A stretch of 64,000 bases of DNA from an uncultured Gammaproteobacteria bacterium (GTDB lineage: Bacteria; Patescibacteriota; Microgenomatia; UBA8517). Below, one piece after another: positions 5,292 to 63,874 of the stretch. Where the stretch lies: assembly GCA_964600575.1 (NCBI GenBank), contig CAZRJH010000002.1, positions 124,298 to 188,297 on the forward strand, given 5' to 3'. Position numbers and translations under genes: made by a program. Position 1 is the stretch's first letter. Every line of letters begins with the position of its first letter. The notes under the pieces are model-generated. The model made no database searches. It was not told the origin of the DNA and worked only from the letters and a program-made list of their open reading frames with translations.

Positions 5292-5492
5292 GTAAAGAAA
5301 CTAAAATTTATAGACAATGAACAACAAACAAAAATTGATGTTAATTTCGGTATTTTCACTTATTTTTGTTAATTGGCTATCTATAAACGAACTTATGGGA
5401 GCCAGATCCATTAGGGAATGGGTAATGGTTTTGGGAACAATTTCCACTTTTATGTACTTTGTGGACGATCTGACTAAAACCAAAAATAAAAA

Positions 5493-6523: not shown

Positions 6524-6543
6524 TCCCGGTAATAGAATACCCC

Positions 6544-6861
6544 ATGTCGGAAAGATATTATAAAACCATGATTGTTGCACCGGGTTTTGAGTACAGAGAT
6601 GAGAACTTTGTGGAACCCTCACCTTTTGGTGGAGCACTAGAGGCTCCCATATCGGAAATAGCGAAAGAACTACATATACACCAAGGTGACGGCAAAACCG
6701 CCATCTATCTTGAAAGCCCCGCAACAGGAGGCCCGTTTGTGGTTTCCCACCAAGGAAAAGAAACCCTTCTTGTGCCGGGTGAGGTGGCTTTGTTCGAAAG
6801 CTGCAAAATAACCCTGTTTATAAAGAAACTGGACCACATACAGATAATTATTCTGGAGTGA
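6544..6861 (+). CDS. Hypothetical protein
   Basis: 105-aa ORF filling the gap. No recognisable motif. Confidence 0.4.
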   Translation: MSERYYKTMIVAPGFEYRDENFVEPSPFGGALEAPISEIAKELHIHQGDGKTAIYLESPATGGPFVVSHQGKETLLVPGEVALFESCKITLFIKKLDHIQIIILE

Positions 6862-6863
6862 TG

Positions 6864-48146: not shown

Positions 48147-48173
48147 GTTAACTTAATTATATTAATAAAAACA

Positions 48174-51020
48174 CTAGGGTGCGAACATTACATTCTTGGC
48201 AAATTGGTAATGTTTGGGATATTGACTGGCGTAATTTGAAATACAGCGTACCCAAGACGAAGTACCGACATAAAGTGCGTTACCCTCGGCCATGCTTTCG
48301 TATTCGTTTCCTACTGTATTGGAATATGAGCAGATTGCCCATTCTGATGTGGGAACTTGTTGTTTAAATTGACTAACTGTGCCTCCATTGATGTTTTGTA
48401 AATGGTGTGAGACCTCATGAGTAAGAATGTAAAGAGCATCTGACTGACTTCTAATTCCACATTGGTTGTAATTAATATCACAACTGCCATTATGGTCGTG
48501 TCTTGCGTAAATAGTTTGGTTACAAAGACCGTTGCCTATTGGATTTGGACTTTTTGTTGTGTAACACATATTAATCTCTCCTCCCGCACAAACCTTTTGA
48601 GCAAAATTTGGATAAGTTCCTGCCAGCGTGGCTGATGCAGAATCTAAATTTGCTTTAAAGTTAGCAGGCCAAGGTTCGTTGTTGTCTACTGTTTTAAAAC
48701 AACCCAGAGGACAGTCTCCAAAACAAACGGAGGCTGACCCAGTTTCCGAAACCTCACCTCCCTCGTTGGAGCTTGCAGTTACCGTAATAGAATCGCTAAC
48801 CAAAGAATCATTGAAACTAGAGTTGTAGTTCGAAGTAAAACTGAATGTAAACGGAGCGCCTGCTGTAATGGTTGCGGGTGCTGCAGGTATTTCTTCCAAA
48901 TTTTTGCAGTCGATTATGCCACCAGCTTTTTTAACGGCGCTGCAAGTATTTGTAAAGCTTATACCTGTAAGGTCATCCTTTTTGGCAGTAATGGTTATGG
49001 TGTAAGTAACAGAAGTGGGGGACGCAAGCTGCCCCGAAGGTTCAGCTTTTTTTTCTACAGACATATAGGGGTTGGTGTTATTTAGACTGGAAGAACTTCC
49101 TCCTGGTGGAATCAGGTAGGCACTATTGTTTATGATTACTAAAATTAAGGCTATCATTAGCGGAAAACCGATAAGAAAACTGATAACAGGTAATCCCAAC
49201 TGTGTCAGGAAAGTTGCCCAGGCTATACTAAAAACTGTAAATATAGAGGAGGCTGTTCCGGAAAAAGCCTGACCCACACCTGTTAGACCTCCTGTCATAA
49301 ATCCAAAAGCACCCAAACCAAGTCCTGCTCCAATTAAGGCGCCAGAAATACCACCTGAAATCAGCATACCTGCAACAGCACCTCCTAATGCTATTGTTGT
49401 TCCGTCTATTTTTTTTGCGTTTTTAGACATCCAGTCTAAAGCTTTTGGACCAATCACAGCAGAAACCAACCCAACAACAGCACCGATAATCAAACTAACA
49501 CCACCTGTTACCGGTGCAGCTGCTGCTGATGCGGCTGCTACGGTGGTTTCCGTAGCAGCAACAGTGCCAACAGTTGCTGCCGTTGCTGCAGTTGCAGTTG
49601 CCGCAGCACCTGCTCCTTCGGCTACTGCAGCTGTAACTCCCCCTACTACTGCTGTTCCTTCTGTCGCCAATACGCCACCGCCAATGGCTGCCGTTTCTGT
49701 TGATATCGCCGCCGCCTGAGTTGTTGCAAGAGCTCCTGATACAGCATCTGCTCCAACTTCTGTACTAATACTGGCTGCTGCTTGTGTTACGCCAAAATCC
49801 ATTCCAGTTATCTGACCAGCCCAGCCAAAAGTTGGTCCGTATCCAAATTCGACTGCCACTCTTCCAAAAAATGTGGTACCCTCCCATGCAATAGGCTCAC
49901 CTAGTCCGTAATAACTTAGGGCTGCTTGGATAACTGGTGCGTTGTAGGCTTCGGCAAGGGCTCCTGATTCAGGAATACTGCTTTCGATCCATGTACCAAC
50001 TTGCCTTAGAAAAACAGACTTAATCTCACCAGAACCAACTTGGGAAATCGTATCAAAAACAAAATCTTGTCGTTGAAGAAAATCAAGTTGCTTTCCTGTT
50101 ACGTTTCCTAAATCATATTCCTCGAATCCAAGCCTTGGTGTGCTGGATATTTCGATTGCCACTCTATCCAAATCTCTTGGACCTAGATAATTCGAGGCAA
50201 AATCTTCTCCAAAAGAAGAGCTAATGATTTTTCTATCGATTTGAAATTCAACAAGCTCAGTTGTAGAAACATTTATTGCGGAATCTCTGAAAGTCTGAAT
50301 ATCGTCATTTTCGATTGACTCCAGCAGGTTAGTATCGTTTGAAATTTTATTTATTGTTACGGCCTCTACAGCAAGTGAATTTCCTCTTAAGTTTTCAACT
50401 ACCCTAACAGCAGCCCTAGTAGAGAGTGCTTTAACCGCTTCTTCATTTGCACCCTGTGGAACATTTGCTTTAATCCTTTTTTCAATTTCAGAAGCCAACT
50501 CCCTTGTTAATTCTCTGGGGTTGTTTTGTGCAGAGGTTCTTAGTGTTTCTGATGTGGGTTGTTTATCTGCAGACAAGGGGTCCGCCTGAGGTGTTGAAAC
50601 TCTTCTGTAAATTTTTCTCCCTTGAGTTTTTTTATGTAATTCCTCTTGTCTTTTTATGGAAGCTTCGACTTGAACTTTTGCATTTTCAGCGCTTTTTCTG
50701 ATAGCTTCTTCCCTTTTAACTCTTTCTGCTTCCATTGCCTCCCTTTTTGCTTTGTCAGGGAGATTTTCTTCTGCTTTTGGTGTTTCTGATCCTATTTTTT
50801 CAAGTACAAATTGAGCATTCTTGACAGTCTCTTTGTCGCCAATTTTTATATCTACACCTGTTAAATTTTTAACTGTTTCTATAAAAGACTGTCTATCGCT
50901 CCATTTAAAATTTCCTGAAACGAATGGCTTATCGCTAACATACACGGCGTTTTCAGGGAAAAAATGATCAAACGCAAGCATTAACTCTTCAACATTTTTC
51001 TTTGTTAATAAATTTGCCAT
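48174..51020 (-). CDS. Mosaic 948-aa membrane protein: cytoplasmic coiled-coil/charged N-region, Ala/Gly/Thr-rich glycine-zipper TM block, and an extracellular Cys-rich domain with an HEXXH motif
   Basis: The first ~370 aa are a charged region (e.g. EAMEAERVKREEAIRKSAENAKVQVEASIKRQEE). An AGT-rich hydrophobic block spans ~aa 370-620. A beta-rich segment then leads to the C-terminal ALYILTHEVSHHL with many Cys. Confidence 0.6.
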   Translation of the reverse strand: MANLLTKKNVEELMLAFDHFFPENAVYVSDKPFVSGNFKWSDRQSFIETVKNLTGVDIKIGDKETVKNAQFVLEKIGSETPKAEENLPDKAKREAMEAERVKREEAIRKSAENAKVQVEASIKRQEELHKKTQGRKIYRRVSTPQADPLSADKQPTSETLRTSAQNNPRELTRELASEIEKRIKANVPQGANEEAVKALSTRAAVRVVENLRGNSLAVEAVTINKISNDTNLLESIENDDIQTFRDSAINVSTTELVEFQIDRKIISSSFGEDFASNYLGPRDLDRVAIEISSTPRLGFEEYDLGNVTGKQLDFLQRQDFVFDTISQVGSGEIKSVFLRQVGTWIESSIPESGALAEAYNAPVIQAALSYYGLGEPIAWEGTTFFGRVAVEFGYGPTFGWAGQITGMDFGVTQAAASISTEVGADAVSGALATTQAAAISTETAAIGGGVLATEGTAVVGGVTAAVAEGAGAAATATAATAATVGTVAATETTVAAASAAAAPVTGGVSLIIGAVVGLVSAVIGPKALDWMSKNAKKIDGTTIALGGAVAGMLISGGISGALIGAGLGLGAFGFMTGGLTGVGQAFSGTASSIFTVFSIAWATFLTQLGLPVISFLIGFPLMIALILVIINNSAYLIPPGGSSSSLNNTNPYMSVEKKAEPSGQLASPTSVTYTITITAKKDDLTGISFTNTCSAVKKAGGIIDCKNLEEIPAAPATITAGAPFTFSFTSNYNSSFNDSLVSDSITVTASSNEGGEVSETGSASVCFGDCPLGCFKTVDNNEPWPANFKANLDSASATLAGTYPNFAQKVCAGGEINMCYTTKSPNPIGNGLCNQTIYARHDHNGSCDINYNQCGIRSQSDALYILTHEVSHHLQNINGGTVSQFKQQVPTSEWAICSYSNTVGNEYESMAEGNALYVGTSSWVRCISNYASQYPKHYQFAKNVMFAP

Positions 51021-51022
51021 TT

Positions 51023-53029
51023 TTACTTAGTGTCGTATGCACGAGGGTTGAGCCTTGCCATTTCCTCGGGATTGGTTGTTATCAACCTGTTTTCTTCCTC
51101 GGAAGCAACCACTCTTATTGGGGCATGGTGTGGTCCTGCAAAAAATATACCTTCTCCTACATTTGCCGCCAAAAGAAGCTGCTTTTCTCCTTGTGATAAA
51201 TAGAAAACTTCGCCTATTCTATCGATTGCGGCAGGCGATTGTTTTAAAAGTACCTGCATAGCACTGTTGGTAACTATGGCTTTACCAATATCTTGCGCCA
51301 AAAAGTCTTCTACATCCTGTGTAATGGTTGTAAGACCTAAATAATATTTACGGGCTCTTTTGACAACGCTCCATAAAAACTGTGCAGTGTCCGGATATCT
51401 CATCATATGCCAAGCCTCATCAACCAAAAGGACTCTCTTTTTAATATCTTTTTTAACACGGGTCCAAATGTAATCAAGAATTATAAACATTGCAATTGGA
51501 CGTATGGCGTCTTGCATGTCTTTAACGGAGAATACTGTAAACGGATTGTCTAGATTAATGTTTGTTTGTTTATCAAAAATTCCCACAAAACTCCCGCGTA
51601 CAAACTTTTCGATACGGGCTGCAAGGTCGAGTGCGTCGGGAACCTCCATACCTATTAGTGTTTTATATAAATCTTCCATTAAAGGTGGCTCTTTTCCTTG
51701 AGTATCGGGGTCCATTGTTATTCCTTTGTTTTTGTATGTCATAACCAACGACCGGTCGAGTAGTGCATCTTGAGTAGGGGATATTTGTCCCATGATGACT
51801 TTCATTAGAGAGTGGAGTGAAAGTATTTTAAGACCAAGCTGGTTCTCTCCCTCTTCTCTTATCTGAGCAAGGTCAAATGGATTGATTTTTGCATCGGAAT
51901 TATAAGAAAAAGAGATGTATTCACCACCAACCGCTTGGGCTAGAGGTTTGTATTCGTTTTCGGGGTCTAAGATTATAGCCTCCGTTCCCGTCATCAAAGA
52001 ACGAAGTGCCTCGAGCTTAACAAAGAATGATTTACCTGCTCCTGAGGTTGCAAAGATAACCATATTGCTGTTTTGCAAACTAAATCTGTCAAAAATAATA
52101 AAGGATTCGTTTTGTGAGTTGATTCCGTATAAAACCCCCCGGTCGCTGGAAAGTTCAGTTGATGTTAAGGGGAATGTTGTAGCAACGGATGTTGTATCCA
52201 TGTTTCTGGTTATACTTAACCTATCCATTCCAAACGGAGCAGTTGAAAGGAATCCCGACTCTTGATCTAAAAGTGCGTGCTTAGAAACGATAAGCAGTGA
52301 ACCAAGTTGTGACTCGATTTGTTTTGTCACATGGTTAAGTTCATCTACTGAGTTTGCCGGTATGGTTATATAAAAGGAGAATTCATAAAATCTTTCTATT
52401 CCCTTAACAAGCTGCTCCTGCAAAGCTTTCGCGTCTTCCAATTTTGCGGAAGTAGAGGGGTCGACTATTTTTCCGCGTTCTATATCTGTCGAAATTTCTG
52501 CTTCCATTTCGGCGATTTTGCGCCTAAGGTCATCCAGAACCGATTTTCCGTCTACAGGATAAACATAAAAAGATATATCCAAACTGGAATCAAAGTTAAC
52601 GACGGGCTCCAGCCATCCGGGTGAAACAAATCTAGGATATCCTCCTACAAAAATTGTACGAAAATACACATCGTTGATTTTTATATAATCAAAATCTTCC
52701 TCGATTGTTTGAGATGAGATTACATCTAAAACATTGGCGCCTTGAGTAACTGCCAGTCCCGGATTTGTATATTTTTGCTTGGCTTGTTTGATTTCCGTCT
52801 GAGTTGGTATGTTTGGTGCTACAGGGCTCGCTTGTGGTGCCGGTTGTTGTGCTACGGCAGGCGGAGTCATAGGTTGAACGGGTTGGGGTGGATCTTGCTG
52901 TGCAACATTCTGAGGAACTGGGGCAATTTGTCCGGGTTGTGGATTTGGATTTAAAGGTGGTGGTGTTATCCCTAAAGCAGAGGGTGGAACAGGGTTTTGT
53001 GGTTTAGAAAAAGGTAATTTTATATTCAT
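51023..53029 (-). CDS. VirB4/TrbE/CagE-family T4SS ATPase (central and C-terminal part) with a Pro/Gln-rich N-terminal extension
   Basis: YFRTIFVGGYPRFVSPGWLEPVVN matches the VirB4 'YRRHLSLKSLPAE...' segment. Walker A is ATSGAGKSFFVKL and Walker B is VLLVDEAWHMM. Confidence 0.8.
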   Translation of the reverse strand: MNIKLPFSKPQNPVPPSALGITPPPLNPNPQPGQIAPVPQNVAQQDPPQPVQPMTPPAVAQQPAPQASPVAPNIPTQTEIKQAKQKYTNPGLAVTQGANVLDVISSQTIEEDFDYIKINDVYFRTIFVGGYPRFVSPGWLEPVVNFDSSLDISFYVYPVDGKSVLDDLRRKIAEMEAEISTDIERGKIVDPSTSAKLEDAKALQEQLVKGIERFYEFSFYITIPANSVDELNHVTKQIESQLGSLLIVSKHALLDQESGFLSTAPFGMDRLSITRNMDTTSVATTFPLTSTELSSDRGVLYGINSQNESFIIFDRFSLQNSNMVIFATSGAGKSFFVKLEALRSLMTGTEAIILDPENEYKPLAQAVGGEYISFSYNSDAKINPFDLAQIREEGENQLGLKILSLHSLMKVIMGQISPTQDALLDRSLVMTYKNKGITMDPDTQGKEPPLMEDLYKTLIGMEVPDALDLAARIEKFVRGSFVGIFDKQTNINLDNPFTVFSVKDMQDAIRPIAMFIILDYIWTRVKKDIKKRVLLVDEAWHMMRYPDTAQFLWSVVKRARKYYLGLTTITQDVEDFLAQDIGKAIVTNSAMQVLLKQSPAAIDRIGEVFYLSQGEKQLLLAANVGEGIFFAGPHHAPIRVVASEEENRLITTNPEEMARLNPRAYDTK

Positions 53030-53038
53030 TTTTAGATT

Positions 53039-53746
53039 TTATTTTTTATCCATTACGACTTCTGGCTCTTTTTTAACCGCGGGTCTTTCGGGATTGTAAA
53101 TTGTATAAAAAAGGTTAACCAGCTCCGGAGTGGTTAGTTGTCTGAATTTTATACCAAGTCTACCCGCCTGTCTTACTAAATGATCGCGTCTGGGGTACAA
53201 AGTGATTTTTGCCTTTTTAATTACAAAAGATTTTGCATAAGGCAAAGGACCGGTTCTTCTTGTAAGTGATTGAACAGATTTGCCTACACCCAGTTCTAAG
53301 GGAGAAAGATACAAAACCACAAAAAACCTTTTACCTAAAACATTTTTCTTTTTGACGGACTCGGAAATAAAGCCTCTGTAGTTTGTCATAAGCCTTATTA
53401 AGAGGGGGTGTGTAAGTTTTTTGGCTTGTTCATCAAGAAAATTAAGATAAGAGCTTATATCCTTTCTGGAGGTTCTAACAATAATTTGTACGGAAAAAGA
53501 TAAAGAGTTAATCATTGCGGCATATGCTGCAATGACTGCCTCCTGCTCTTTTTCGCTTAAGAGTCCAAAGTTTAAAGAGGTTGATTCCATAACAAGAGCT
53601 GCGCCCCCGTCTTTGTAAATCAAAATGTCGTTTGTAATGTCTGCAATTGGTAAATGATCTTGGGTTGTAGCCGTTATTGGTTTGTCGGGAATAGAAATAA
53701 AAGGAACTTTTGGAAAATTTGATAGGTCCGGTGGTTTTATTGCCAT
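53039..53746 (-). CDS. VirB4 N-terminal domain, encoded as a separate ORF in frame with the downstream ATPase ORF
   Basis: DHLPIADITNDILIYKDGGAALVMESTSLNFGLLSEKEQEAVIAAYAAMINSL aligns with the VirB4 N-terminus (YLPY..HLSDHIVLLEDGS..AFELEEIE..NTLLRNI). The stop TAA at 53039-53041 is in frame with ATG 53029. Confidence 0.6.
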   Translation of the reverse strand: MAIKPPDLSNFPKVPFISIPDKPITATTQDHLPIADITNDILIYKDGGAALVMESTSLNFGLLSEKEQEAVIAAYAAMINSLSFSVQIIVRTSRKDISSYLNFLDEQAKKLTHPLLIRLMTNYRGFISESVKKKNVLGKRFFVVLYLSPLELGVGKSVQSLTRRTGPLPYAKSFVIKKAKITLYPRRDHLVRQAGRLGIKFRQLTTPELVNLFYTIYNPERPAVKKEPEVVMDKK

Positions 53747-53748
53747 AG

Positions 53749-54891
53749 TTAGTTAACTCCGACTGCCATAGGGTTTTGTACGACTGCGGGTGTCTGTTGT
53801 GGTGGAGCCTGTGCTACCGCCGAATGTTTACCTTGAATCAGTATTGGCGGTATAAGGTTTCCTGTTGTTTCAAAAGTATAAGGAATAAAGTCGAATCCGT
53901 CTTTTTCGGTAATGACATCATATCTACCAATCTCCAAGGGTGTTACGGTTATAAAATGCCCTGCTTTGTTGCTTCTTAATGCCCTTATCGGTCTTCCTGC
54001 GGAATCTCTTATTTCCATAATAGCTCCCTCGATTATTTTTCTGTTTTCATCCACAACCTGGCCGACAACAACATTTGGTATTGTCGGCGGGCTGGGAGGT
54101 GCCGCGTCAATTGAAAACAAAGCTTGTTTTGCCGAAACAATTTCTTCACCAGCAATAGTGGGTGCAACCTGGTGTGTTGTTATCTCCGGAGCAGATATAA
54201 GCGGGTCCGCTTTTCTTTCTTCTACAACCAAATGCGGAATATTAGACACGACTTTGATTGGCGCAGTTTGTGGTATCTGGAGTTCCTTTTGCGGTTCGAC
54301 GGGCTTAGGTGCTACCGCGACATTTTCTTTTGGCATAGTAAGCGGTACAACGGGGGGCTGTGGAACAGTGGGGGGTGGGGAAACGGGTGCGGCAGGAACT
54401 CCAGTAGAAACAGGGCTGACAACACCTGTAAACATACCTGTTAGAGTTGCCAAAAATCCTTGCTCTGCCATGTCCATTTTTGCGGAAGAGCCTGATTTTT
54501 GATTTGCAACGGATAAATAGTCGTTAAGTGCTTTTTCCTGAGGTGCCGCAGTTTCTACAGAAACAGTGCTTGCAGGTTCGTCCAAAAAAAACTTCGTGGC
54601 AACTTTTGTTTCTTGCCAATAGAATTCGGTTGGGGCGTATATCGCCCTAAAAAAAGCAAAAATCCACTTTTCCAAAGGCCGTTCTTCTAAGGGTAAAAAT
54701 GCCAAACAAACACCAAGGATTGCCGAAACGATTACAAACGGCCATTTAATTATTCCTATGAGTGGTGCGGAATAAAAAATTAGGGCGACCAAAAATCCAC
54801 CCGCAAGTTGAAAAAATTGCTTAAGGGTCATTTCTCCAACCAAACGAAATTGATAGGAGCTTATTTGTTGTGGTATTGCGTGTTGTTGCAT
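53749..54891 (-). CDS. PrgI/VirB3-like T4SS membrane protein fused to a Pro-rich linker and a C-terminal transthyretin/CarboxypepD_reg-like beta-sandwich domain
   Basis: The N-terminus is FRLVGEMTLKQFFQLAGGFLVALIFYSAPLIGIIKWPFVIVSAILGVCLAF (PrgI-like, two TM). The C-terminus is VVGQVVDENRKIIEGAIMEIRDSAGRPI...GRYDV. Confidence 0.5.
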   Translation of the reverse strand: MQQHAIPQQISSYQFRLVGEMTLKQFFQLAGGFLVALIFYSAPLIGIIKWPFVIVSAILGVCLAFLPLEERPLEKWIFAFFRAIYAPTEFYWQETKVATKFFLDEPASTVSVETAAPQEKALNDYLSVANQKSGSSAKMDMAEQGFLATLTGMFTGVVSPVSTGVPAAPVSPPPTVPQPPVVPLTMPKENVAVAPKPVEPQKELQIPQTAPIKVVSNIPHLVVEERKADPLISAPEITTHQVAPTIAGEEIVSAKQALFSIDAAPPSPPTIPNVVVGQVVDENRKIIEGAIMEIRDSAGRPIRALRSNKAGHFITVTPLEIGRYDVITEKDGFDFIPYTFETTGNLIPPILIQGKHSAVAQAPPQQTPAVVQNPMAVGVN

Positions 54892-54970
54892 AAACAGGAA
54901 GCCTTTGAGGTAAAGGCAGCCTATAAACAGATTACTGCGTGAAGCGTATGGTGCAAGATGAAAGCTTTTT

Positions 54971-55022
54971 CACAAACAAAAAGCCCTTGAGGTAGTGTTT
55001 CAAAAATAAAAACCTCAAGGGC
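54971..55022 (-). terminator. Intrinsic terminator after the 91-aa membrane-protein gene
   Basis: Perfect 11-bp stem GCCCTTGAGGT/ACCTCAAGGGC (54983-55022). On the minus strand it is followed by TTTTTGTTTGTG. Confidence 0.5.
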
Positions 55023-55045
55023 TGCAAGGACTAATAACTTTTTCG

Positions 55046-55321
55046 TTATTGTGTAAAAAAGGCGTAAACAACATATCCGCCTAAGCCAAAAATCAAAAAA
55101 AATATAGAAATTATGGTTAGAACAAGAACAACTGCCCAACCGACCTTGGCCTTACCGCTTGCGTTTTGCATCTTTTTAAAGCTGAAAAAAGCAAAAAAGC
55201 CAAAAAGTGCAACAGGAAAGACTCCTGGGACAAAAGTTAACAACAAACAGACAGGTGTGGCGACAACGGCTGTTAAAGCAATTTGCCACCATTTAAGTGC
55301 AAAGATGTTTGACACTTTCAT
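55046..55321 (-). CDS. Small 3-TM membrane protein (hypothetical) within the T4SS-like cluster
   Basis: 91 aa, three hydrophobic helices, followed by a terminator. Confidence 0.5.
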   Translation of the reverse strand: MKVSNIFALKWWQIALTAVVATPVCLLLTFVPGVFPVALFGFFAFFSFKKMQNASGKAKVGWAVVLVLTIISIFFLIFGLGGYVVYAFFTQ

Positions 55322-55441
55322 GAAATACTCCTTGTAAAGTACAGTAATTTAAGTTGACTGTGGTATTTTCCCAAATTATAGGGCTATAGTCAAAATATTC
55401 TGTTTTGTAGTTGGTTTACGGATGTTATATAATTTGAGCAT

Positions 55442-58156
55442 ATGGCAGGTGGACCCGAACAGGGCGGAATGGACCCCAAACTAGAAGAAGCTCTCAAAAT
55501 GGAGATGTCTTTGCGTAACGAACAATCTAGGGGCATGTATTTGTCCGATTTGGACAGATTTAAAAAGAGTCTTACCGAACTAGATATGGCCAAAACAGAG
55601 GAGGAGAGAGAAATGGCCAGGGAGCGTGCCTACGAGCATTTTGACGAGATCAAAAAACAAGAGCTGGGTCACCTTGAATTTATAACAGACAAACATATGA
55701 GTTTTGAGTTTGCGTTCCCTTACGACTCCAGACAAGGCGCTGTCTGGTTTATGGCAATGCGAAGGGATTTAGAGGATACGCTTGCCCTAGACGAAGACCA
55801 TGGAGGGTTCAAAGAAGATAGTGAGGCTAGAAAGTGGGTAGAAAACTTATATGACGCTGTTGTTTGGGGTGATGGAAATTATGGTGTACAGGAAGGCTTG
55901 AATACAATTAATTATTACTTCGGAGGATTCGACGCAATGGCTGCAGGGCTTCAGTCAATGAAACTTAGAATCACATCCACAAAGATGGCGGATGCAAACT
56001 CCAGAGATGTTAGAGGTGCTGGTTCAAATGAAAAAAGTGCAGAAGGTCTAATGGTAGCGAAAGGAAAGGTTTTGGGTAGTAAAAAGCTTGAAGTTCCTCA
56101 TACATACTTCGATAAAAAACTAAAGAAGAAGGTTACCGAAACAAGACAGGTCGATTGGTTAGTTAAACAAAAAGAGGCGGTTGAAAATATTAGGGAAATT
56201 GGCGTAAGCGGACAAGACGAGTTTTATTATTGGAGAAATCTTGTTGCAGCAGTTGCTCAGTATGATTATGCACAGCCCAACAAGGATGGCTTAATGCGTG
56301 CCAATAAGGTTAGACAAGGACTGGAGGTTGATTTTGTGGTTCAGCTTTTTGGCAAAAAAGAAGCTGACGGAAGGACTCCAAAGATGGTTGCTAGTGAAAA
56401 AGGTGTGGCTCCTGACTCAATCTTAAGTTTCTTTACAATGGCTGACACAAAGAAAAACAGACGTGAATACAGGCAGCTTATGATGGCTTTAATGGAATGC
56501 AAAGCTATGGATAAGTTAGCTGCGTGCAACGAAGAAACTGATCCCAACAAACCTCCGCGAGTAAACTTGGCCCAAATGCAAGTTTTACTTAACGAGGTTA
56601 AGGATGCTAAAGACAGGATAGCGAAAAGAGAACAAAAGAAGGCTCCTTCTACAGAAGATAGAATCAGATCTGTGGTAGTTAAAAATGGTTTGATTTTTGA
56701 TATTGCTTCGGGCGGCTCCGGTCCTATGGCTTGGCAGTTTGAGTATAAAATGACCAGGAACAAAAGGGGTAAGGATGGCAAGGTAATCCCTGGAACCGGC
56801 AGGATGGTAAGAAGAGTAGATTTTGGAGGCATCAATCAAGCAGGAGATTGGTACACACCTGAGTTTTGGCTACTTCATAACCTTCTCTACGACAAAACAA
56901 GCAGACTCAGGTCCAAAAAAATGCTTGCGACTCCTGATAGGTATCGAAAGGCGGTTCTGCAGGAAAAAAGTCCTTTCGAAAAACCTTTATATTCTCTAGA
57001 AGAAGCTAAAAAAATTGATCCTTGGCAATATAACGAAGTACAAAAAATTGTTGCGGAAGATGATGAGGAGATATTGGTTAGTGGTGACGACGACATGTTT
57101 GATCTTTTTATGGCAGGAGGCCTTAACGAAAAACAAAAGGCCGACATGCGAAAGGCGGGAAGACTCATGAAAGCCGGTGATTGGAGGGAGCAAAATAAAT
57201 TTAGAATAGATCCTGTTATAAGAGAGGCTCTCAAAGACGCAGTTTGGTTCCAGGAAATACCATATCCGATTGGAACCAATTCTGACGGCTCGCCCGTCTT
57301 CCCGCTTTTTGCTACATTTATCCCTCCCAGGTTTAAGATGAGCTTTTTTGACCATGTTAAAACGAGGGATGAAAAAGGAAGGCAGGTTACAATGCAAGAT
57401 AGGCTAAGAAACGCAGACTTAAAGCTTTCTGAAGTTGACTATGAGAACGACCTAAAAGAACATCAGTGGGATAGGTGGCTTGTGAACATGAACATGGGTG
57501 AACGTTTGTTGAGGTTTGCTGCAGAACCGGGTGATCCAAGAGCAGAAGAAGCTATCCTTGGAGGGACCGGAACACTCAAGGAGGGAATCAAAAGAACGGG
57601 ACTTCACAACAGAGACTCGTTTTATGCGTACGAAGTAGAGGTTCCTGATGCAAGTGCTCCCGGAGGTAAACGTAAAGAAACCCGTTATGCACCGGGGTCG
57701 TTTTTTGAATTAGTTTTAGTCGGCCAAATGAATATGTTGCATGCAGTTAAAGGTAATCCAAGAGCGAGAGATGCATCCGACGCAATTCCAACCGACCTTA
57801 TCAGCCCTGCAATAGAGGACGATGAGTTCTCCAACAGGTGGGAGAACATTGTTATGCCTGAGTATATTAATGCGGCTAAGTATTTGACTCCCGACACAGG
57901 CGAAGATGAGGGAACTCCTGAGTTTTACAACGAAACCTTGGCAATATTAATGGCTGTGACGGGCAATTCACTTTTTAGAATGGCACTTGAAGGGGGATCT
58001 AACTCTGTACACGACAAGATGGTTGTCGTTAATCAACTAAGAACAATGAAAGTTGACCGAAAGAAGCGTTTGGTTAAGAGAGGAGCGGTTAACTTTACAG
58101 AGAACAATCCCAATACTCAGCTCTCTGCAAAAGTTGCTTACTCTAGTAGAAAATAA
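55442..58156 (+). CDS. 904-aa soluble protein of unknown function, encoded antisense to the T4SS-like operons
   Basis: Long clean ORF with no TM, P-loop or relaxase His-triad seen by eye. Rich in Arg/Asp/Glu/Met/Trp. A promoter-like TTGACT-N17-TATAGG and a TATAAT lie upstream. Confidence 0.7.
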   Translation: MAGGPEQGGMDPKLEEALKMEMSLRNEQSRGMYLSDLDRFKKSLTELDMAKTEEEREMARERAYEHFDEIKKQELGHLEFITDKHMSFEFAFPYDSRQGAVWFMAMRRDLEDTLALDEDHGGFKEDSEARKWVENLYDAVVWGDGNYGVQEGLNTINYYFGGFDAMAAGLQSMKLRITSTKMADANSRDVRGAGSNEKSAEGLMVAKGKVLGSKKLEVPHTYFDKKLKKKVTETRQVDWLVKQKEAVENIREIGVSGQDEFYYWRNLVAAVAQYDYAQPNKDGLMRANKVRQGLEVDFVVQLFGKKEADGRTPKMVASEKGVAPDSILSFFTMADTKKNRREYRQLMMALMECKAMDKLAACNEETDPNKPPRVNLAQMQVLLNEVKDAKDRIAKREQKKAPSTEDRIRSVVVKNGLIFDIASGGSGPMAWQFEYKMTRNKRGKDGKVIPGTGRMVRRVDFGGINQAGDWYTPEFWLLHNLLYDKTSRLRSKKMLATPDRYRKAVLQEKSPFEKPLYSLEEAKKIDPWQYNEVQKIVAEDDEEILVSGDDDMFDLFMAGGLNEKQKADMRKAGRLMKAGDWREQNKFRIDPVIREALKDAVWFQEIPYPIGTNSDGSPVFPLFATFIPPRFKMSFFDHVKTRDEKGRQVTMQDRLRNADLKLSEVDYENDLKEHQWDRWLVNMNMGERLLRFAAEPGDPRAEEAILGGTGTLKEGIKRTGLHNRDSFYAYEVEVPDASAPGGKRKETRYAPGSFFELVLVGQMNMLHAVKGNPRARDASDAIPTDLISPAIEDDEFSNRWENIVMPEYINAAKYLTPDTGEDEGTPEFYNETLAILMAVTGNSLFRMALEGGSNSVHDKMVVVNQLRTMKVDRKKRLVKRGAVNFTENNPNTQLSAKVAYSSRK

Positions 58157-58205
58157 CTTCTGAAGCTTTTAATCCGGTAAAAAGGTGGTTGGAACAAACA
58201 AGTTT

Positions 58206-60020
58206 TTAGTGTCTTTCTGTCCCACTTTTAACGTTCTTGACGACACTGTCAACTCTATCGCCAACATACCTGTTCTGTCGTAGTTTTTCAACAGATCTCT
58301 GCAAGAAGTCGAGCTTGCTCATGTCAGTTCTATTCGCTTCCCAGTCTCTCATATACTTAGCCAATCCTTCTTGGCTGTTAAGTTTTCTAAGCATTTCCAC
58401 TCTATCACGAGCACCCGATGCGCCATATGCCCAACCGACAGGTGCCAAAGCTTCGCCTATCGCAGTTCCATATGCAAACGGCCTGCCGCTCATAAGACCT
58501 TGCAGGACCTCTGTTGCTTTTGGAATTAATGTAAATAGTACAAAGCTTACACCGAGCATTAAAAGCCCTGTTCCGCCGCCTGTAGAGGCGCTGGCACTCA
58601 AAAGGGGAGGCCATGCAGAGTTGTATACAAAGAATCCTCCAACATTCGCGATTGTGGATTGTCCAAATAAAAAGCCTAATATTCCTGTTCCAAGATTACT
58701 ACCAAGCCCCTCCCAGGCCAAAACAACTCCTTGTTCCAAAAAGACATACGAGAAAAATATTAAAACACTTGTGAGAACAAAAACCCCCAAGTTAGTAGCA
58801 TAACTTCTTAACCAAGCCCCGAATCCGAAACTGGGGAACATGACGCCGGCGACAATTTGAACAGGTGCAAATATAGTTAAAAGAATTATGTTGGTAAAGG
58901 CTTTTAATAGTCCGAACATCGTCTTAAACAATTGAACAATGATTACGATGACTATAACTATAGCCAAAACTATAACTATAATTCCGGTAATAGGGGTTAA
59001 GATTGCAAACAAGGGTGCCAAAATAGTACCAACAACTCCAATGACGGCGGCTCCTAGCACCCCAACTGTTAAGAAGAGAGTAATAATGAGTGATATTGGG
59101 AACAAGACAAGATAAATTAATAAAAGTCCGAGTAGTCCTAACTCGACACCACCACCACCTCCACCAACTCTACCTGCGGTGATGAATTCGAACACAGTGG
59201 AAGCAGAAACGCTTCCACCAAATGGAATAAAGCCTTTTCCTAACAGTGCAAACAAACCATAAAGAACGTACATCAAATCGATCATAAAACCCGCAATAGC
59301 ATAGGAGAAAGTTACTAAAATCAAGGCACCGATTAGCTTGGGAAGTGCTGTTTGCACAGAGATAACAACTTGTGGCGAAATTTTGACTCTAAACATTATC
59401 ATAAATGCAAAAGCGATCGCTGCTATAACAAAAAGACCGAAAGCTAAATCTCTTGATGTTTGCCACATTGCTTGAACAGGTTGTAATGCGTTGAATCCAA
59501 AACCTACAACTTGTGCATGCGCTTCGGGAACTATGCTAAAGTTGTTTACTTTCTGTCGAACATAGTTAACTCCAGACATTGGCCTGTTTTTGTCAAAAAT
59601 TAAACTCAAAAGTGGCTTTTCGGGAGCCTTTGGCCTATTTGCCATTTCCTGAAGTTGTTCCGGTGTTGCCGAAAGTAAGCTGGCACAAGCATTAACATTG
59701 GCTGAGTTTTTAAACAGACAGCTTAAAAGTTTTTGATTGCTGGTTTGATTAACCAAAAAAGAAAGAAGTCCGTAAACAACCCATTGAACCTGGGCTGCGG
59801 TATATCTTTCTCCAAAAATTTCACTTTGGTTGCTGTCGTCGTAAACTTTGGAATACCAATCCTGGAAGCTGGAGTTATACCAAGTGCCAGCTGGGGCAGG
59901 GGTGGGGGCTGCAGCTTTTGCCGCCATAAAAGGCGCAAAAGAAAATAGCATTACCCAAGCTGCCATCAAAGAAATTAAGAACTTTTTTAATAACATGTGA
60001 GATTTAAGAAAGAAAGGCAT
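58206..60020 (-). CDS. VirB6/TrbL-like polytopic T4SS channel protein (putative)
   Basis: 604 aa. A signal peptide and a ~170-aa external domain are followed by ≥6 TM helices with Gly-rich loops (GGGGGVELG) and a cytoplasmic C-tail. The assignment rests on topology and context. Confidence 0.45.
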   Translation of the reverse strand: MPFFLKSHMLLKKFLISLMAAWVMLFSFAPFMAAKAAAPTPAPAGTWYNSSFQDWYSKVYDDSNQSEIFGERYTAAQVQWVVYGLLSFLVNQTSNQKLLSCLFKNSANVNACASLLSATPEQLQEMANRPKAPEKPLLSLIFDKNRPMSGVNYVRQKVNNFSIVPEAHAQVVGFGFNALQPVQAMWQTSRDLAFGLFVIAAIAFAFMIMFRVKISPQVVISVQTALPKLIGALILVTFSYAIAGFMIDLMYVLYGLFALLGKGFIPFGGSVSASTVFEFITAGRVGGGGGGVELGLLGLLLIYLVLFPISLIITLFLTVGVLGAAVIGVVGTILAPLFAILTPITGIIVIVLAIVIVIVIIVQLFKTMFGLLKAFTNIILLTIFAPVQIVAGVMFPSFGFGAWLRSYATNLGVFVLTSVLIFFSYVFLEQGVVLAWEGLGSNLGTGILGFLFGQSTIANVGGFFVYNSAWPPLLSASASTGGGTGLLMLGVSFVLFTLIPKATEVLQGLMSGRPFAYGTAIGEALAPVGWAYGASGARDRVEMLRKLNSQEGLAKYMRDWEANRTDMSKLDFLQRSVEKLRQNRYVGDRVDSVVKNVKSGTERH

Positions 60021-60036
60021 TAAAAGTATTATATAG

Positions 60037-60083
60037 CAAACTCAGAATAAAATGGAATTTTTTCAGCTTGTATTCTGAGTTTG
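60037..60083. repeat. 13-bp perfect inverted repeat (CAAACTCAGAATA...TATTCTGAGTTTG) between the Cys-rich secreted-protein gene and the VirB6-like gene
   Basis: Read directly from the sequence. The loop is 21 nt. On the minus strand a TATAAT lies just downstream. Confidence 0.55.
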
Positions 60084-60169
60084 ATATATAGAAACTCTGT
60101 GCTTGTCAAACAAAATTTTCTGAAATTTTGTATTAAAGTGACTATATCAACTTGTGTTTGTATTTAAAA

Positions 60170-62839
60170 TCAGTTTCCGTGAGCAACATCCCAGACACAA
60201 GCATTGTGACTCTGGCTTGAATAACGGTTGCTGATTGTTTCGCAGGTATCTCCAACAGGGCAGGCGGCAGCTAGTCCTCCCAAAGCACATCCATTTTCCA
60301 CAGTCATACACATACTTGTATAACCGCTTTCGTAGACTTTTATGGCAGACTCGTATTGTTCATCCGTCCAGCTACAAGAGGAGGGTACGGGCGCACTTAG
60401 TTTTATTCCAAAACAAGTTGGGGGAAGGCCGCCGCCGCCATCTGCACTGTCGTGAAGGTTATAGGCCGCCGCGAATATTGCATCCAACAAATTACATTGA
60501 CTAAATTCTTTTCTGGCAGGATCGATTTTTTGCAGGTCGGCTTTTATTTTGGGAACTGTTCTTTCGAAAACGGTTCCGTTAAAGCCCATAAAATGATCAT
60601 CTCCGGTCTCATTACATCCAGGAATCTTGGTGCATGTTGCCCAATTTTTAACATTTTGATCCGTCCATTCGTATCTTCCTGGGTTAAAAAGACCTTCTCC
60701 AAACATTTGAGCCACTAATAAATTTGGCGGTACCTTGTATGTTTGTGCAGCCGCAGAAATAATATCTTCCAGTGACTTGGGTAAGTTTCCAACTCTGGAG
60801 CTTACCCCTCCTAATTGACAAGAACCCGAGGCTTTGGGGAGTTCCGGAAGCTCTCCGCAAACAACATTTGTGCAGGATTGTCCGTTAACAGGCTGAGCTC
60901 CGCCGTAACCTTTTGGCCTTAAAGCTGTTTGGATTCCGTTTAAAAAATATTCTAAAACTCCCCCGTAATGCGGGTAGAAAACTTTTGCTTCTAAAGCATC
61001 CGTCTTGTTTGCAAACGATCCCATGCGGCTGTCATCGGGAAGTATCACCTGTGTAAGCCTTATTCCCTGACTACTTGGATCGGTAATTTTATAAGTTGCT
61101 TTGGATTCGGCAGGAATATCTGCAATACAAGACACAGGAGCATTCGCACCTGTTTTTGGGTACATTCTTCTAAATATTGCGTCAGGACCTGCTACAGTGT
61201 TATTCCATATTTCGTCCGCAAATGGGGTTTTGCTTACAGTAGGGATTGTTGCGTAAACTTCGGATTCACAAGTTGCAACCATTTCACAAACCGTTTGACC
61301 ATATGTTGGGCTTGTGGGATTGTTGTCTTCTCGACATTCTTCGTGTGGTTCACTACACTGAATTTCGCCGACATCGTATTGGACATCAACTTCTATCCAT
61401 TTTTTGGGAGACTCAAAGTTAACATCGTCCCCGGGGTTGCTTCTGGAATTTAATATTTTACAAGGGGCTCTGTTAACTTCGACATCGCTCAAGCTTGAAG
61501 CCGCGGCGTTTGAAGAACCACCAGCCGGTGCCATTGGAACGAAGGTCTTTTTTAACAAGCTGGTAAGTTCGTTGTTTTCGTCTGCATGGGGAAACCACTG
61601 ACGAAATGCCGGTTTGATAATTTGGTAGTCCGATTCTACTATTTCGGCTTTGGCTGCACTCACATGTGCAAAAAGAACCATATGTCCTCCTGGTATGTCT
61701 CTATTGTTGGCAAGGGGGATGTAGGGGAATAGGTCAGCATATTTATTGGGAACGAGCAAATTTTCGAAACAGGCAAGTCTATCGATAATCGGAAGAATAA
61801 AACAGGTTTGACCCCTCCATTCGTAATATGCTTTTTGATAATCTACATTTCTTGCGAACGGTTTTCCTGTGCCATCATCCCAAGGAAGCGGCGGTCGTCT
61901 AAGATTCCAGTGGTTACCGATTGAAGCTTCGATTGCACCCGTAGAAACAAAAGGAAAGAGAACATTGTAAGCATTTACTGCGGTCCTGATGGTGGCGTTT
62001 GATAAAACATTAAATATGGATAAATTACCGTTCCAGTCTTTGAGTCTGTAAACATCGCCGCTTGCCCCGGCACCTCCGCCTTTGTAACACTCCTTAGGGG
62101 TTGTTTTACCGACATTAAACAGGTCTACAATCCAGCCCAAAAGGCCACCTCCGCCTTCACCTGCACAAACTACAATTTGATTGTGGTTCATTTTGTCGGG
62201 CGAAGATTCGCCTGTTTCGTCGTCTGTTGCGCTTGTCGATTCGTCGGGGGATTCTATTGTTTTTACTCTTGCAGCGTCTTGAATTACAGAAGGTAGGAGT
62301 CTCCTAAGAGGCCCGGAATAGTTAACTTGTTGGGAGATGTCGCTTTTTGGGTATTCCGCTTTGTCGCTGACACCGTTAAGGTACCAAGCAACATAGTCGT
62401 TAACTTTTGTTCCGTCGTCCATTGTGCCAGTGCCATTAACGCTATTAGAAGTTAACTCTGTGTTTCCCATGATAGGGAGTTCCGCATCCAACATTTCTAC
62501 AGCAATCTTCTTTTCGTAGTGAGTTATTGTTGGGGTGCATGTTGGATCGCCTTTGTAAGGACATTTGACTGTGTTTAGATATATAACTACAGCGTTTCCG
62601 CACCAATAAGTTTTTGGAGCATCGCCACAAGGAGAGGCTTGGTATGGGCGACCACTACTGTATTCGGGATTCTTTTCGTCTTCACAGGGAATGTTTCCTG
62701 ATCTTGGAATTGCATCGGCCGCATTGAGCGTGTTTATTTGGAGCGTTAAAAAAACAAAAGCAACACCAAGAACTAAAGTTGTTAACGAATAAAGCAAACT
62801 AATAAGTTTTTCCGGTTTTTGGAGTTTTTTGTTCTGCAT
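60170..62839 (-). CDS. Secreted Cys-rich 889-aa protein with a C-terminal lysozyme-like/lytic-transglycosylase-like region (VirB1/PrgK-like candidate)
   Basis: N-terminal signal/TM. More than 40 Cys. LLVAQMFGEGLFNPGRYEW resembles the SLT motif LLAAIAYQESRFNPNA, with Gly in place of the catalytic-adjacent Ser. Confidence 0.55.
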   Translation of the reverse strand: MQNKKLQKPEKLISLLYSLTTLVLGVAFVFLTLQINTLNAADAIPRSGNIPCEDEKNPEYSSGRPYQASPCGDAPKTYWCGNAVVIYLNTVKCPYKGDPTCTPTITHYEKKIAVEMLDAELPIMGNTELTSNSVNGTGTMDDGTKVNDYVAWYLNGVSDKAEYPKSDISQQVNYSGPLRRLLPSVIQDAARVKTIESPDESTSATDDETGESSPDKMNHNQIVVCAGEGGGGLLGWIVDLFNVGKTTPKECYKGGGAGASGDVYRLKDWNGNLSIFNVLSNATIRTAVNAYNVLFPFVSTGAIEASIGNHWNLRRPPLPWDDGTGKPFARNVDYQKAYYEWRGQTCFILPIIDRLACFENLLVPNKYADLFPYIPLANNRDIPGGHMVLFAHVSAAKAEIVESDYQIIKPAFRQWFPHADENNELTSLLKKTFVPMAPAGGSSNAAASSLSDVEVNRAPCKILNSRSNPGDDVNFESPKKWIEVDVQYDVGEIQCSEPHEECREDNNPTSPTYGQTVCEMVATCESEVYATIPTVSKTPFADEIWNNTVAGPDAIFRRMYPKTGANAPVSCIADIPAESKATYKITDPSSQGIRLTQVILPDDSRMGSFANKTDALEAKVFYPHYGGVLEYFLNGIQTALRPKGYGGAQPVNGQSCTNVVCGELPELPKASGSCQLGGVSSRVGNLPKSLEDIISAAAQTYKVPPNLLVAQMFGEGLFNPGRYEWTDQNVKNWATCTKIPGCNETGDDHFMGFNGTVFERTVPKIKADLQKIDPARKEFSQCNLLDAIFAAAYNLHDSADGGGGLPPTCFGIKLSAPVPSSCSWTDEQYESAIKVYESGYTSMCMTVENGCALGGLAAACPVGDTCETISNRYSSQSHNACVWDVAHGN

Positions 62840-62852
62840 CTGGCATCTTGTT

Positions 62853-63137
62853 TTATCTGAGCATCAAGTTGAATTGTGTAAGATTGCGGACACCTGTTAT
62901 GTTTCCAATGATAACTAAAACAAGGAAGGAGAGGAGTATGACTATAAGGCCTCCGATTGCGTAAGTCATTGTTTTTTGTGCCCCTTCGATTGCCTTTGGA
63001 TCTCCTCCGGAGGTGATATATTTGATTCCTCCCATAACCAGAAAAACAAATAGGATTATTCCTGCAAAAGTAAGAAAGCTTCTAACTAGACTCTCAAATA
63101 TTTTACTGAGGTCCGATATGGTGGCTATTCCATTCAT
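62853..63137 (-). CDS. VirB2/TrbC-like T4SS pilin paralog 1
   Basis: 94 aa with two hydrophobic helices flanking GGIKYITSGGDPKAIEGAQKT. Confidence 0.55.
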   Translation of the reverse strand: MNGIATISDLSKIFESLVRSFLTFAGIILFVFLVMGGIKYITSGGDPKAIEGAQKTMTYAIGGLIVILLSFLVLVIIGNITGVRNLTQFNLMLR

Positions 63138-63189
63138 AACAACAATTTTATTACAAACGAAACTTTAAAGCTATATCTACAAAAAGAGA

Positions 63190-63519
63190 TTATACAGAGG
63201 GGATAACCAAGGAGAAGATATCGATGTGGAAGAATGTGTTGATTAAAGCAACAATTGCCCAGGCTGCGAAAACTATAACCAAGCCTACTAAAGCTGCTGT
63301 AATTTGATTTCTAGCAGACTCCGTTTGAGCTTTGTCTCCGCCTGAAGCAATCCATTTGATACCTCCAATGACCAAAATAAAGAAGAAGACGATAGCTGCT
63401 ACAACTACTGTGAGTCTGATTAATGCCGAAATAAGACCAGGAATAGTAAGTTTGGCCAAAGGAGCAAACTGGGTTCCTTCACCCGGCTGCAAATTAATTT
63501 GTGCTAAAAGGTTGTTCAT
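63190..63519 (-). CDS. VirB2/TrbC-like T4SS pilin paralog 2
   Basis: 109 aa with the motif IGGIKWIASGGDKAQTESARNQITAALVGLVIVFAAWAIVALI. Confidence 0.55.
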   Translation of the reverse strand: MNNLLAQINLQPGEGTQFAPLAKLTIPGLISALIRLTVVVAAIVFFFILVIGGIKWIASGGDKAQTESARNQITAALVGLVIVFAAWAIVALINTFFHIDIFSLVIPSV

Positions 63520-63526
63520 ATGTATA

Positions 63527-63874
63527 TTATCGAATCCCTAGTGCCGCAATGTCAAGAGTCAGAATGTGTATATGGAAGAACGACTCTATAACTTTAATTA
63601 ATGCGAAAGCTGCAAAAGCCAAAACCATGCCTACCAAAGCGTTTGTAATCCTTGCTCGGGCGGTTTCAAGTGCTTGTTTGTCTCCGTTAGACGAAATCCA
63701 TTGGATTGATCCCAAGATGAGCATGAAGAAAAAGATAACTGAGCCGATTAAAAAGGCCATGCCAATAGCGGCCGGAACGGCTTTTTGAAAATAACTCTCA
63801 CCTGTGTTGTTTTCTAGTTGTCCAAGTGCAGGATTGCCGATTACCCCCGATGCTGCTGCTATTAAGTTGTTCAT
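63527..63874 (-). CDS. VirB2/TrbC-like T4SS pilin paralog 3
   Basis: 115 aa with the motif ILGSIQWISSNGDKQALETARARITNALVGMVLAFAAFALIKVI. Confidence 0.55.
   Translation of the reverse strand: MNNLIAAASGVIGNPALGQLENNTGESYFQKAVPAAIGMAFLIGSVIFFFMLILGSIQWISSNGDKQALETARARITNALVGMVLAFAAFALIKVIESFFHIHILTLDIAALGIR

Follow-up and report, generated by a model that had tools for sequence, protein, structure and literature searches.

The antisense gene and its locus

We analyzed a 64,000-nt stretch of contig CAZRJH010000002.1 (hereafter the window, whose first letter is position 1) in which a type IV secretion system (T4SS) locus lies beside the genes dnaA and dnaN. Embedded in this locus is a large gene of 904 codons read from the plus strand, which is the target of the present study (Table 1). 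It is the sole plus-strand open reading frame (ORF) longer than 200 aa within 47553-63874 and all the other large ORFs of this segment are found on the minus strand. This is exactly what an earlier reading of the DNA made from its letters alone (the sequence-only reading) had reported when it described a lone, large plus-strand gene in a ~16-kb minus-strand block. The same reading had called the surrounding cluster T4SS-like, and profile searches bore this out by detecting a VirB4/TraG P-loop domain, TrsD, PrgI and, in three genes, T4SS_pilin. An open frame of 904 codons has a chance probability of ~8e-26 at the local base composition, and the coding status of the target was confirmed by full-length homologues.

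Table 1. Features of the T4SS locus and of the target gene, in window coordinates. Protein identities are those between the window and the counterparts in the related loci L001, L004, L005 and L007.
Feature	Coordinates	Strand	Evidence or remark	Identity
dnaA	44691-46151	+	Profile matches	61-71%
dnaN	46450-47562	+	Profile matches	51-59%
o197, 197 aa	47553-48146	-	Conserved locus member; convergent with dnaN, 10-nt overlap with its end	
o948, 948 aa	48174-51020	-	Four central hydrophobic segments; conserved locus member	27-36%
VirB4-type ATPase	51023-53029	-	PF19044, E=1.1e-28, exceeds gathering score	78-87%
TrsD/TraC-like protein	53039-53746	-	TrsD NF041427, E=4.6e-7; homologues TraC-like	64-80%
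PrgI/VirB3-like membrane protein, 380 aa	53749-54891	-	PrgI, E=6.8e-5, under gathering score	45-58%
o91, 91 aa	55046-55321	-	Three hydrophobic segments; first gene of the operon divergent from the target	
Spacer separating the target from the divergent o91/prgI operon	55322-55441		Minus-strand promoter-like site from 55393 to 55365	
-10 box TATAAT	55428-55433	+	Perfect match, 8 nt 5' of the ATG	
Target coding sequence, stop codon included	55442-58156	+	ATG start; 904 aa, soluble, highly charged; slot family C1a	24-48%
Motif PYDSRQG, residues 93-99	55718-55738	+	Invariant in the close subfamily; the form PYPYDSR (residues 91-97) marks the wider family	
Predicted long beta-hairpin, residues 204-246	56051-56179	+	Among the most variable stretches of the close subfamily	
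Motif GGINQAGDWYTPEF, residues 462-475	56825-56866	+	G462 and D469 kept in at least 90% of 46 family members	
C-terminal 30 residues, candidate translocation signal	58064-58153	+	Net charge +6; low pLDDT (~50-60)	
o604, 604-aa polytopic membrane protein	58206-60020	-	~11 hydrophobic segments; convergent with the target	34-42%
o889, 889 aa	60170-62839	-	N-terminal hydrophobic segment, 3.1% Cys (hydrophobicity and composition)	32-50%
VirB2-like T4SS pilin genes (three)	62853-63137, 63190-63519, 63527-63874	-	PF18895; two above gathering score	

A hydrophobicity scan of the target did not reveal any 19-mer reaching a value of 1.6 (maximum 1.16), and a motif scan found no Walker A ([AG]xxxxGK[ST]), HxH, HExxH or CxxC motif. 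Both scans agree with the sequence-only reading, which had seen neither a transmembrane segment nor a P-loop or relaxase HxH motif. In addition, no AAA or P-loop family matched the target, and the possibility that it is a relaxase or an ATPase was rejected based on the absence of the defining motifs. Charged residues represent 31.6% of the protein (Arg 7.0%, Asp 7.5%, Glu 8.5% and Lys 8.6%) and Met another 4.5%. The unusual composition claimed for the target was confirmed for Arg, Asp, Glu and Met, which, like Lys, are raised relative to the neighboring genes (Arg 0-5.5% and Met 0.5-4.3%, with one small pilin gene alone approaching the Met content of the target), but not for Trp, whose frequency of 1.5% is undistinctive next to the 1.6-1.7% of o604 and o889. 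In the suggested comparison of GC and codon usage, the GC content of the target (0.431) and its GC content at third codon positions (GC3, 0.399) both fell inside the range of the flanking genes. Because GC and GC3 match those of the neighbors, we rejected a foreign insertion. The compositional contrast is that expected of a soluble protein amid membrane proteins and is not a sign of foreign origin.

The target had been described as an orphan, and this holds to the extent that we could not assign it to any known family. Searches of Pfam, PHROGs, NCBIfam and PADLOC yielded no match, and a PDB sequence-profile search returned noise at best (E=0.5). It is, however, part of a small family, and almost the whole lineage shares the position that it occupies. 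Eight relatives with 38-100% identity were identified by a word-indexed search of 5.8 billion proteins, and an exhaustive HMMER search of 1.84 billion representatives of 50% identity clusters extended the family to 45 clusters with 23-53% identity, mostly 750-920 aa in length. The residues conserved across the family are PYPYDSR (91-97), R251, Q273, W431, G462, D469, S663, K717, R718 and R724, and these do not appear to fit any catalytic signature that the analysis recognized. The close subfamily presents many invariant columns over its whole length; a profile search of genome contigs with family alignments did not find this subfamily among GTDB representatives. No Pfam family was common to more than one of the 46 family members, and the few single matches were weak and mutually unrelated.

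The structure of the target was modeled with a predicted local distance difference test score (pLDDT) of 90.1 and a predicted template modeling score (pTM) of 0.88. Structure searches of PDB and BFVD with this model returned no match and did not relate it to relaxases or primases. The remote-homology and structure searches advocated in the sequence-only reading have now been conducted, and they did not connect the target to a housekeeping family or to any other known family. The protein family is new, and its predicted fold, as compared with PDB and BFVD, may be new as well.

The start codon of the target is preceded by a perfect -10 box and no Shine-Dalgarno sequence was detected before the ATG. 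Because this sequence is absent and the -10 box lies so close to the ATG, the mRNA is probably leaderless or carries a very short leader. Promoter-like elements had been placed in the divergent spacer by the sequence-only reading; this is accurate for the TATAAT box, but no good -35 element accompanies it. A consensus promoter scan listed no plus-strand site ahead of the target because the -35 element is poor.

The slot, its occupants and its neighbors

The position of the target is retained across related loci, and we refer to it as the slot. In all 11 contexts that were fetched for family members (L001-L008 and L089-L091), the family gene was found in the same slot and convergent with a polytopic membrane gene (o604 in the window), and these contexts include members that are 23-24% identical to the target. 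Where the contig reaches far enough, the family gene is divergent from the PrgI-TrsD-VirB4 genes and lies beside dnaA-dnaN. We then considered 80 loci obtained by a VirB4-anchored scan of GTDB. Their VirB4 proteins are 67-88% identical to that of the window and, where informatively named, the loci belong to Candidatus Woesebacteria, Microgenomates or Patescibacteria. A hidden Markov model (HMM) of the family identified 17 members among the 80 loci, all upstream of and antisense to virB4, and 13 of these 17 correspond to the slot gene that had been called independently by position. Co-occurrence with the T4SS had been raised as a check on the sequence-only reading, and every context examined places the family gene inside the T4SS locus.

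The slot itself is not restricted to this family. Considering the 65 GTDB loci from ultrasmall bacteria of the Woesebacteria type with enough upstream sequence, an antisense soluble ORF of 526-1083 aa (median 772) occupies the slot in 63 of them. L033 and L069 are the two exceptions: neither has an antisense gene at the customary distance from virB4, and a related gene is located farther off in L069 (248-2539). BLAST clustering of 73 slot proteins produced 10 single-linkage groups, and their C-terminal 400 residues formed 13 groups without any BLAST link. The N-terminal clusters cross-cut the C-terminal clusters, such that N-terminal modules are common to different C-terminal types. Profile-profile comparisons did not reveal any similarity between the target family and the other slot groups (probability <5%), with the exception of a 30-residue match to group C1b (66% probability); a few profile-profile links were found among the other groups. 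No Pfam family was present in more than one of 53 slot proteins of other types, for which the few single matches were again weak and mutually unrelated, and PADLOC returned no match for the target and nine representatives of other slot types. Some loci contain extra short antisense ORFs, but these are unlike the N-termini of slot proteins, which ruled out a split N-terminal module. Finally, no orphan cassettes were found within 10 kb.

No other gene of the locus comes close to the slot gene in variability. Across 27 pairs of GTDB loci whose VirB4 proteins are at least 90% identical, identity-times-coverage has a median of 0.04 for the slot gene and falls below 0.1 in 74% of the pairs. For the same pairs the medians are 0.86 for TrsD, 0.75 for PrgI, 0.43 for o889, 0.38 for o604 and 0.33 for o948. 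At a VirB4 identity of ~87%, the identity between the target and its counterpart amounts to 80% for L089, 38% for L001 and 24% for L004, and the slot gene is wholly unrelated to the target in several GTDB loci. Because target identity varies from 24% to 80% at a like VirB4 distance, these comparisons point to type switching and not to steady divergence.

Replacement of the slot gene can be delimited in three pairs of loci. L026 and L027 are ~90% identical in their flanking DNA (82-93% by segment, over ~18 kb) and are dissimilar over 3820-7905 in L026 and 3954-7905 in L027. Most of the polytopic gene and nearly the whole slot gene are replaced in this pair, and only ~80 N-terminal residues of the slot protein are kept, with 77.5% identity. 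The two antisense ORFs are both exactly 906 codons long, yet they are unrelated past residue 80; cryptic colinear homology between the two proteins was rejected, with a diagonal identity of 7.2% against a background of 6.1%. In the pair L059/L066 (flanking DNA 92-95% identical, dissimilar over 5812-7517), ~200 N-terminal residues of the slot protein are kept and the ~535 residues that make up its C-terminal part are replaced, as are the last ~30 codons of the polytopic gene. In the pair L056/L057 (flanking DNA 83% identical, dissimilar over 5497-7087), ~290 N-terminal residues of the slot protein are kept, and the replacement affects its C-terminal part along with the end of the polytopic gene. 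The 3' end of o604, or most of the gene, is therefore co-replaced in the cassette swaps; the protein remains 83-86% identical in the latter two pairs despite the replacement of the slot body.

Within one slot type, the coding sequences show a signature of purifying selection. The target is 80% identical to its nearest relative, found in L089, with a nonsynonymous divergence (dN) of 0.153, compared to 0.141 for PrgI and 0.145 for o604. Synonymous divergence (dS) is saturated even in this comparison, leaving dN/dS uninformative. The C-terminal tail of o604 is not associated with the slot type (tail identity of 0.20 vs 0.19-0.20), and co-evolution of this tail with the slot type is thus unsupported. 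The association of the o604 body with the slot type is weak.

The T4SS block begins directly after dnaA-dnaN. With these two genes as neighbors the locus adjoins the replication origin, and a change in the sign of the GC skew at ~44-46 kb is consistent with an origin region. Residues 862-887 in the C-terminal part of o948 weakly match an HExGHH zinc-metallopeptidase model (E=0.007); this protein may be the component that remodels the cell wall (VirB1-like), or else a VirB6-like protein that bears an enzymatic domain. The C-terminus of the PrgI/VirB3-like protein presents weak CarboxypepD_reg/SpaA (Ig-like) matches, which is an odd extension for a VirB3-type protein and is also found in L007. 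The small gene o91 is missing from most related loci. It is 39.6% identical to its counterpart in L089, the closest relative (dN 0.61), and the neighboring genes are 80-90% identical. On the other side of the target, o604 is a candidate VirB6 analogue and o889 is probably surface-exposed. At the place of o889, the locus L091 (contig of relative P0003) contains a Fic-domain gene following the polytopic gene (4485-5465, minus strand); Fic proteins are known as T4SS effectors or toxins in other bacteria. The pilin array reaches the end of the window. Its counterpart in L089 (11673-14504) consists of eight small genes, five of which match T4SS_pilin, and judging by this locus the array probably runs on past the window end. 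One pilin is 99% identical between the window and L089, and the adjacent genes are 75-86% identical.

The rest of the window is composed of ordinary chromosomal genes, including those of aminoacyl-tRNA synthetases, GroEL, YidC, TsaD and a UvrD/AddA-like helicase, together with one tRNA-Cys. A fused-looking ORF for t6A synthesis (351 aa, 30372-31427, plus strand) combines Sua5/YrdC (TsaC) and TsaE domains and is followed by TsaD at 32333-33391.

Possible roles of the slot proteins

Unrelated slot types present several properties in common. None of the slot proteins reaches a clear transmembrane value in the hydrophobicity scan, and charged residues represent 24-35% of all of them. Their N-termini are acidic and rich in Pro, Gly and Glu, and they often begin with MPDG, MAE or MPE. 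The net charge of the last 30 residues averages +2.26 over the 73 slot proteins and is positive in 82% of cases, compared to a mean of -0.56 for internal windows of slot proteins (Wilcoxon p=4e-11). The C-termini of 763 other ORFs from the same loci have a mean charge of +0.16 and are positive in 38% of cases. Vergunst and co-workers are said to have described a positively charged C-terminus as a feature of VirB/D4 transport signals in PNAS in 2005. Slot genes also resemble each other upstream: 47 of 68, spanning all types, have a TAnAAT box that precedes the ATG by 5-9 nt, and the same geometry was found in 16% of the 763 control ORFs. This arrangement of the -10 box suggests that slot genes may produce leaderless transcripts.

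These results lead us to propose that the target represents one of the allele types in which a polymorphic substrate or effector of the T4SS occurs, a reading to which we give a probability of roughly 0.45. We favor it because the gene is locked to the T4SS locus, is the most variable gene of this locus and is replaced as a cassette, and because its product is soluble, carries a positively charged tail and appears to evolve under purifying selection within a type. The substrate would most likely be exported to the host bacterium or to its surface. Three roles had been put forward in the sequence-only reading, namely a secreted substrate or effector, a regulator, or a novel structural or enzymatic component. 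The comparative evidence favors the first option, whereas a conserved core part of the machine or a classical regulator fits the pattern of the slot gene poorly.

We infer export of the target, recognition of its tail, an action on the host and a selective cause, which could be connected as follows. The target would be transcribed divergently from the prgI-trsD-virB4 operon, with a -10 box right before the ATG and a leaderless mRNA, and the cytoplasmic protein would adopt a new fold as a compact, ~750-residue domain. It would be recognized through its disordered, positively charged C-terminal tail, and possibly also through its acidic, Pro-rich N-terminal leader, and the folded protein would then be exported through the T4SS. 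A variable target in the host would impose balancing or diversifying selection on the slot protein. The population would hence maintain many unrelated bodies and exchange them through homologous recombination, which would be anchored in the conserved 5' end of the slot gene and in the neighboring polytopic membrane gene. A bolder version of this proposal is that the slot encodes a repertoire of mutually unrelated proteins with novel structures, which Woesebacteria would inject into a host bacterium via their T4SS, and that the allele carried sets the range of hosts open to exploitation or of competitors kept out; we consider this version doubtful.

Several observations weigh against the target being an exported effector. 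Neither the 46 family members nor the 53 slot proteins of other types contain a toxin or enzyme domain that could be recognized, and we found no dedicated immunity-like gene co-varying with the slot gene, since the downstream gene is the convergent polytopic gene o604 of 550-600 aa. A VirD4-like coupling protein was found beside the locus in only one of 92 loci (L001:17246-19384, plus strand, just past the pilin array), and none was seen among the scanned ORFs of the 64-kb window. This ruled out a type IV coupling protein (T4CP) as a regular member of the locus, and T4CPs are often encoded elsewhere in Patescibacteria. The positive tail of slot proteins is weak and non-specific, making it a necessary yet insufficient attribute of a substrate, and the sequence pairs within a type are not independent. 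The results of hhalign on shallow alignments are compatible with one fold for all types. Finally, the T4SS locus that was shown to be essential in Saccharibacteria (Southlakia) has no gene at the slot position; the slot is therefore lineage-specific and cannot explain the function of the T4SS generally.

Alternatively, the slot gene may encode an accessory or regulatory T4SS component of the cytoplasm: an assembly factor, for example, or a gate, an adaptor for substrates or a platform akin to a chaperone. Such a component would be retained in the cell and would vary to match the fast-evolving envelope parts o604, o889, o948 and the pilins. A soluble protein without a signal peptide in the hydrophobicity scan, encoded with strict fidelity to the locus and divergently from the core operon, could play such a role, and a locus without T4CP may need another cytoplasmic receptor. 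The envelope genes are variable as well (27-50% identity where VirB4 is 78-87% identical), and L026/L027 lose most of o604 together with the slot gene. However, contact with the conserved VirB4 and TrsD (85-98% identical) sits badly with unrelated replacements in 74% of close pairs. Adjustment to o604 would in turn be difficult to reconcile with the preservation of this protein in L059/L066 and L056/L057 and with a tail that is uncoupled from the slot type, and the target possesses no NTPase or known adaptor motif. We therefore view an accessory part as unlikely, and as less probable than an exported substrate.

The discrete allele types that are kept in large numbers and shuffled by recombination would also be expected of a self/non-self identity or exclusion determinant, which epibionts would exchange via the T4SS or use to block it and which would be read by a variable membrane partner. 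IdsD/IdsE of Proteus and the TraG/Eex exclusion pairs provide analogues. Purifying selection within a type is in line with such a role, as is the adjacent polytopic membrane gene that was co-replaced in one pair. This gene is nevertheless a poor candidate for the partner: its tail is not associated with the slot type and its body only weakly so, and it was left nearly untouched in two of the three swaps. Known exclusion proteins are, moreover, small membrane proteins, and we regard this role as improbable.

It is similarly improbable that the slot is a recombination hot spot holding unrelated cargo, e.g., anti-phage defense or accessory genes, without any link to secretion. Conserved flanks with unrelated contents do recall defense islands, and none of the occupants has an assigned function. 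Yet the slot always holds one gene, in a fixed orientation and of similar size (median 772 aa), and the composition, promoter geometry and terminal charge are common to unrelated types. PADLOC was blank for the 10 representatives and the target family was never observed outside the slot, both of which also argue against simple cargo. Finally, it is very improbable that the target is a DNA-processing protein, such as a relaxase of non-canonical type or a pilot protein serving a conjugation-like role in a T4SS without recognizable relaxase. In favor of this reading, T4SS loci of Patescibacteria generally lack relaxases (PMC12102498), and a large, soluble, locus-encoded protein with conserved R251, K717, R718 and R724 could bind nucleic acid. 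Against it, the target shows neither an HxH nor a His-triad motif, was matched by no relaxase family of Pfam or NCBIfam and does not resemble relaxases or primases in structure, and unrelated replacements in close relatives are unexpected for an enzyme tied to a fixed oriT.

Relation to known systems and biological significance

The locus of the window resembles the mating-pair-formation FATA (MPF-FATA)-like T4SS locus of Patescibacteria (Wang et al. 2023, PMC10633639; Quinonero-Coronel et al. 2025, PMC12102498). It possesses VirB4, TrsD, the PrgI/VirB3-like protein, the array of VirB2-like pilins and the adjacency to dnaA/dnaN, and no relaxase family matched among the window ORFs that were scanned, which are only part of the total. 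In contrast, neither the Tn-seq study (PMC10633639) nor the phylum-wide survey (PMC12102498) describes a gene for a soluble protein that lies antisense between prgI and the polytopic gene. In Southlakia ML1, prgI (SEML1_0010) is directly followed by SEML1_0011 on the same strand, which differs from the arrangement in the window. The window belongs to the Woesebacteria/Microgenomatia branch and not to Saccharimonadia.

Large proteins that are encoded with a secretion system and vary between strains are found elsewhere. CagA, encoded in the cag island of Helicobacter pylori, is a large and soluble protein with its own fold, which is T4SS-island-encoded, has no homologues elsewhere and is polymorphic among strains. 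Its export by the T4SS is proven and relies on a positively charged C-terminal signal, and its target cell is eukaryotic. For slot proteins we infer export, and the target cell is presumably bacterial. CagA varies mainly by repeat motifs within one homologous protein, whereas the slot gene is swapped for bodies that are unrelated in sequence. IdsD/IdsE of Proteus mirabilis offer another parallel, as a large variable protein with strain-specific alleles and a polytopic membrane neighbor. The slot likewise holds a variable, secretion-linked protein beside a polytopic gene, but Ids is associated with a type VI secretion system (T6SS) and not with a T4SS, and the co-variation of partners that defines Ids was not seen between the slot type and the o604 tail.

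The slot also resembles polymorphic toxin systems (CdiA-CT, Rhs and LXG; Zhang, Aravind et al. 2012, PMC3482391) and X-Tfe effectors (PMC8262851). As in these systems, the slot keeps an N-terminus and swaps the C-terminal body, and it presents many discrete types, a link to specialized secretion and purifying selection within a type. Unlike polymorphic toxins, slot proteins have no recognizable toxin domain and the slot has neither an adjacent co-varying immunity gene nor orphan cassettes within 10 kb. The breakpoints also differ from one swap to another (80, 200 and 290 aa), whereas those of polymorphic toxins lie at a fixed motif. The X-Tfes of Xanthomonas and Stenotrophomonas possess a conserved C-terminal XVIPCD (PMC8262851), but the conserved part of slot proteins is N-terminal. 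The slot and the cassette exchange that it undergoes had not been described for this recently recognized secretion system, and the slot is kin to polymorphic secretion-linked proteins.

The role of the T4SS in Patescibacteria has been called "completely unknown" (PMC11665869), and the delivery of effectors has been proposed or speculated (PMC11665869, PMC10633639). The system is essential for epibiotic growth in the one species of Patescibacteria tested, and it has no known substrate. Patescibacteria, or candidate phyla radiation (CPR) bacteria, represent a big share of bacterial diversity and live on other microbes. The slot gene provides a concrete candidate substrate of their T4SS and a marker of host interaction at the strain level. 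The confident model of the target, without match in PDB or BFVD, may in addition represent a new protein fold. If Woesebacteria do inject slot proteins into their hosts, these would be the first identified T4SS substrates of CPR bacteria and would form a polymorphic effector system that works without immunity genes.

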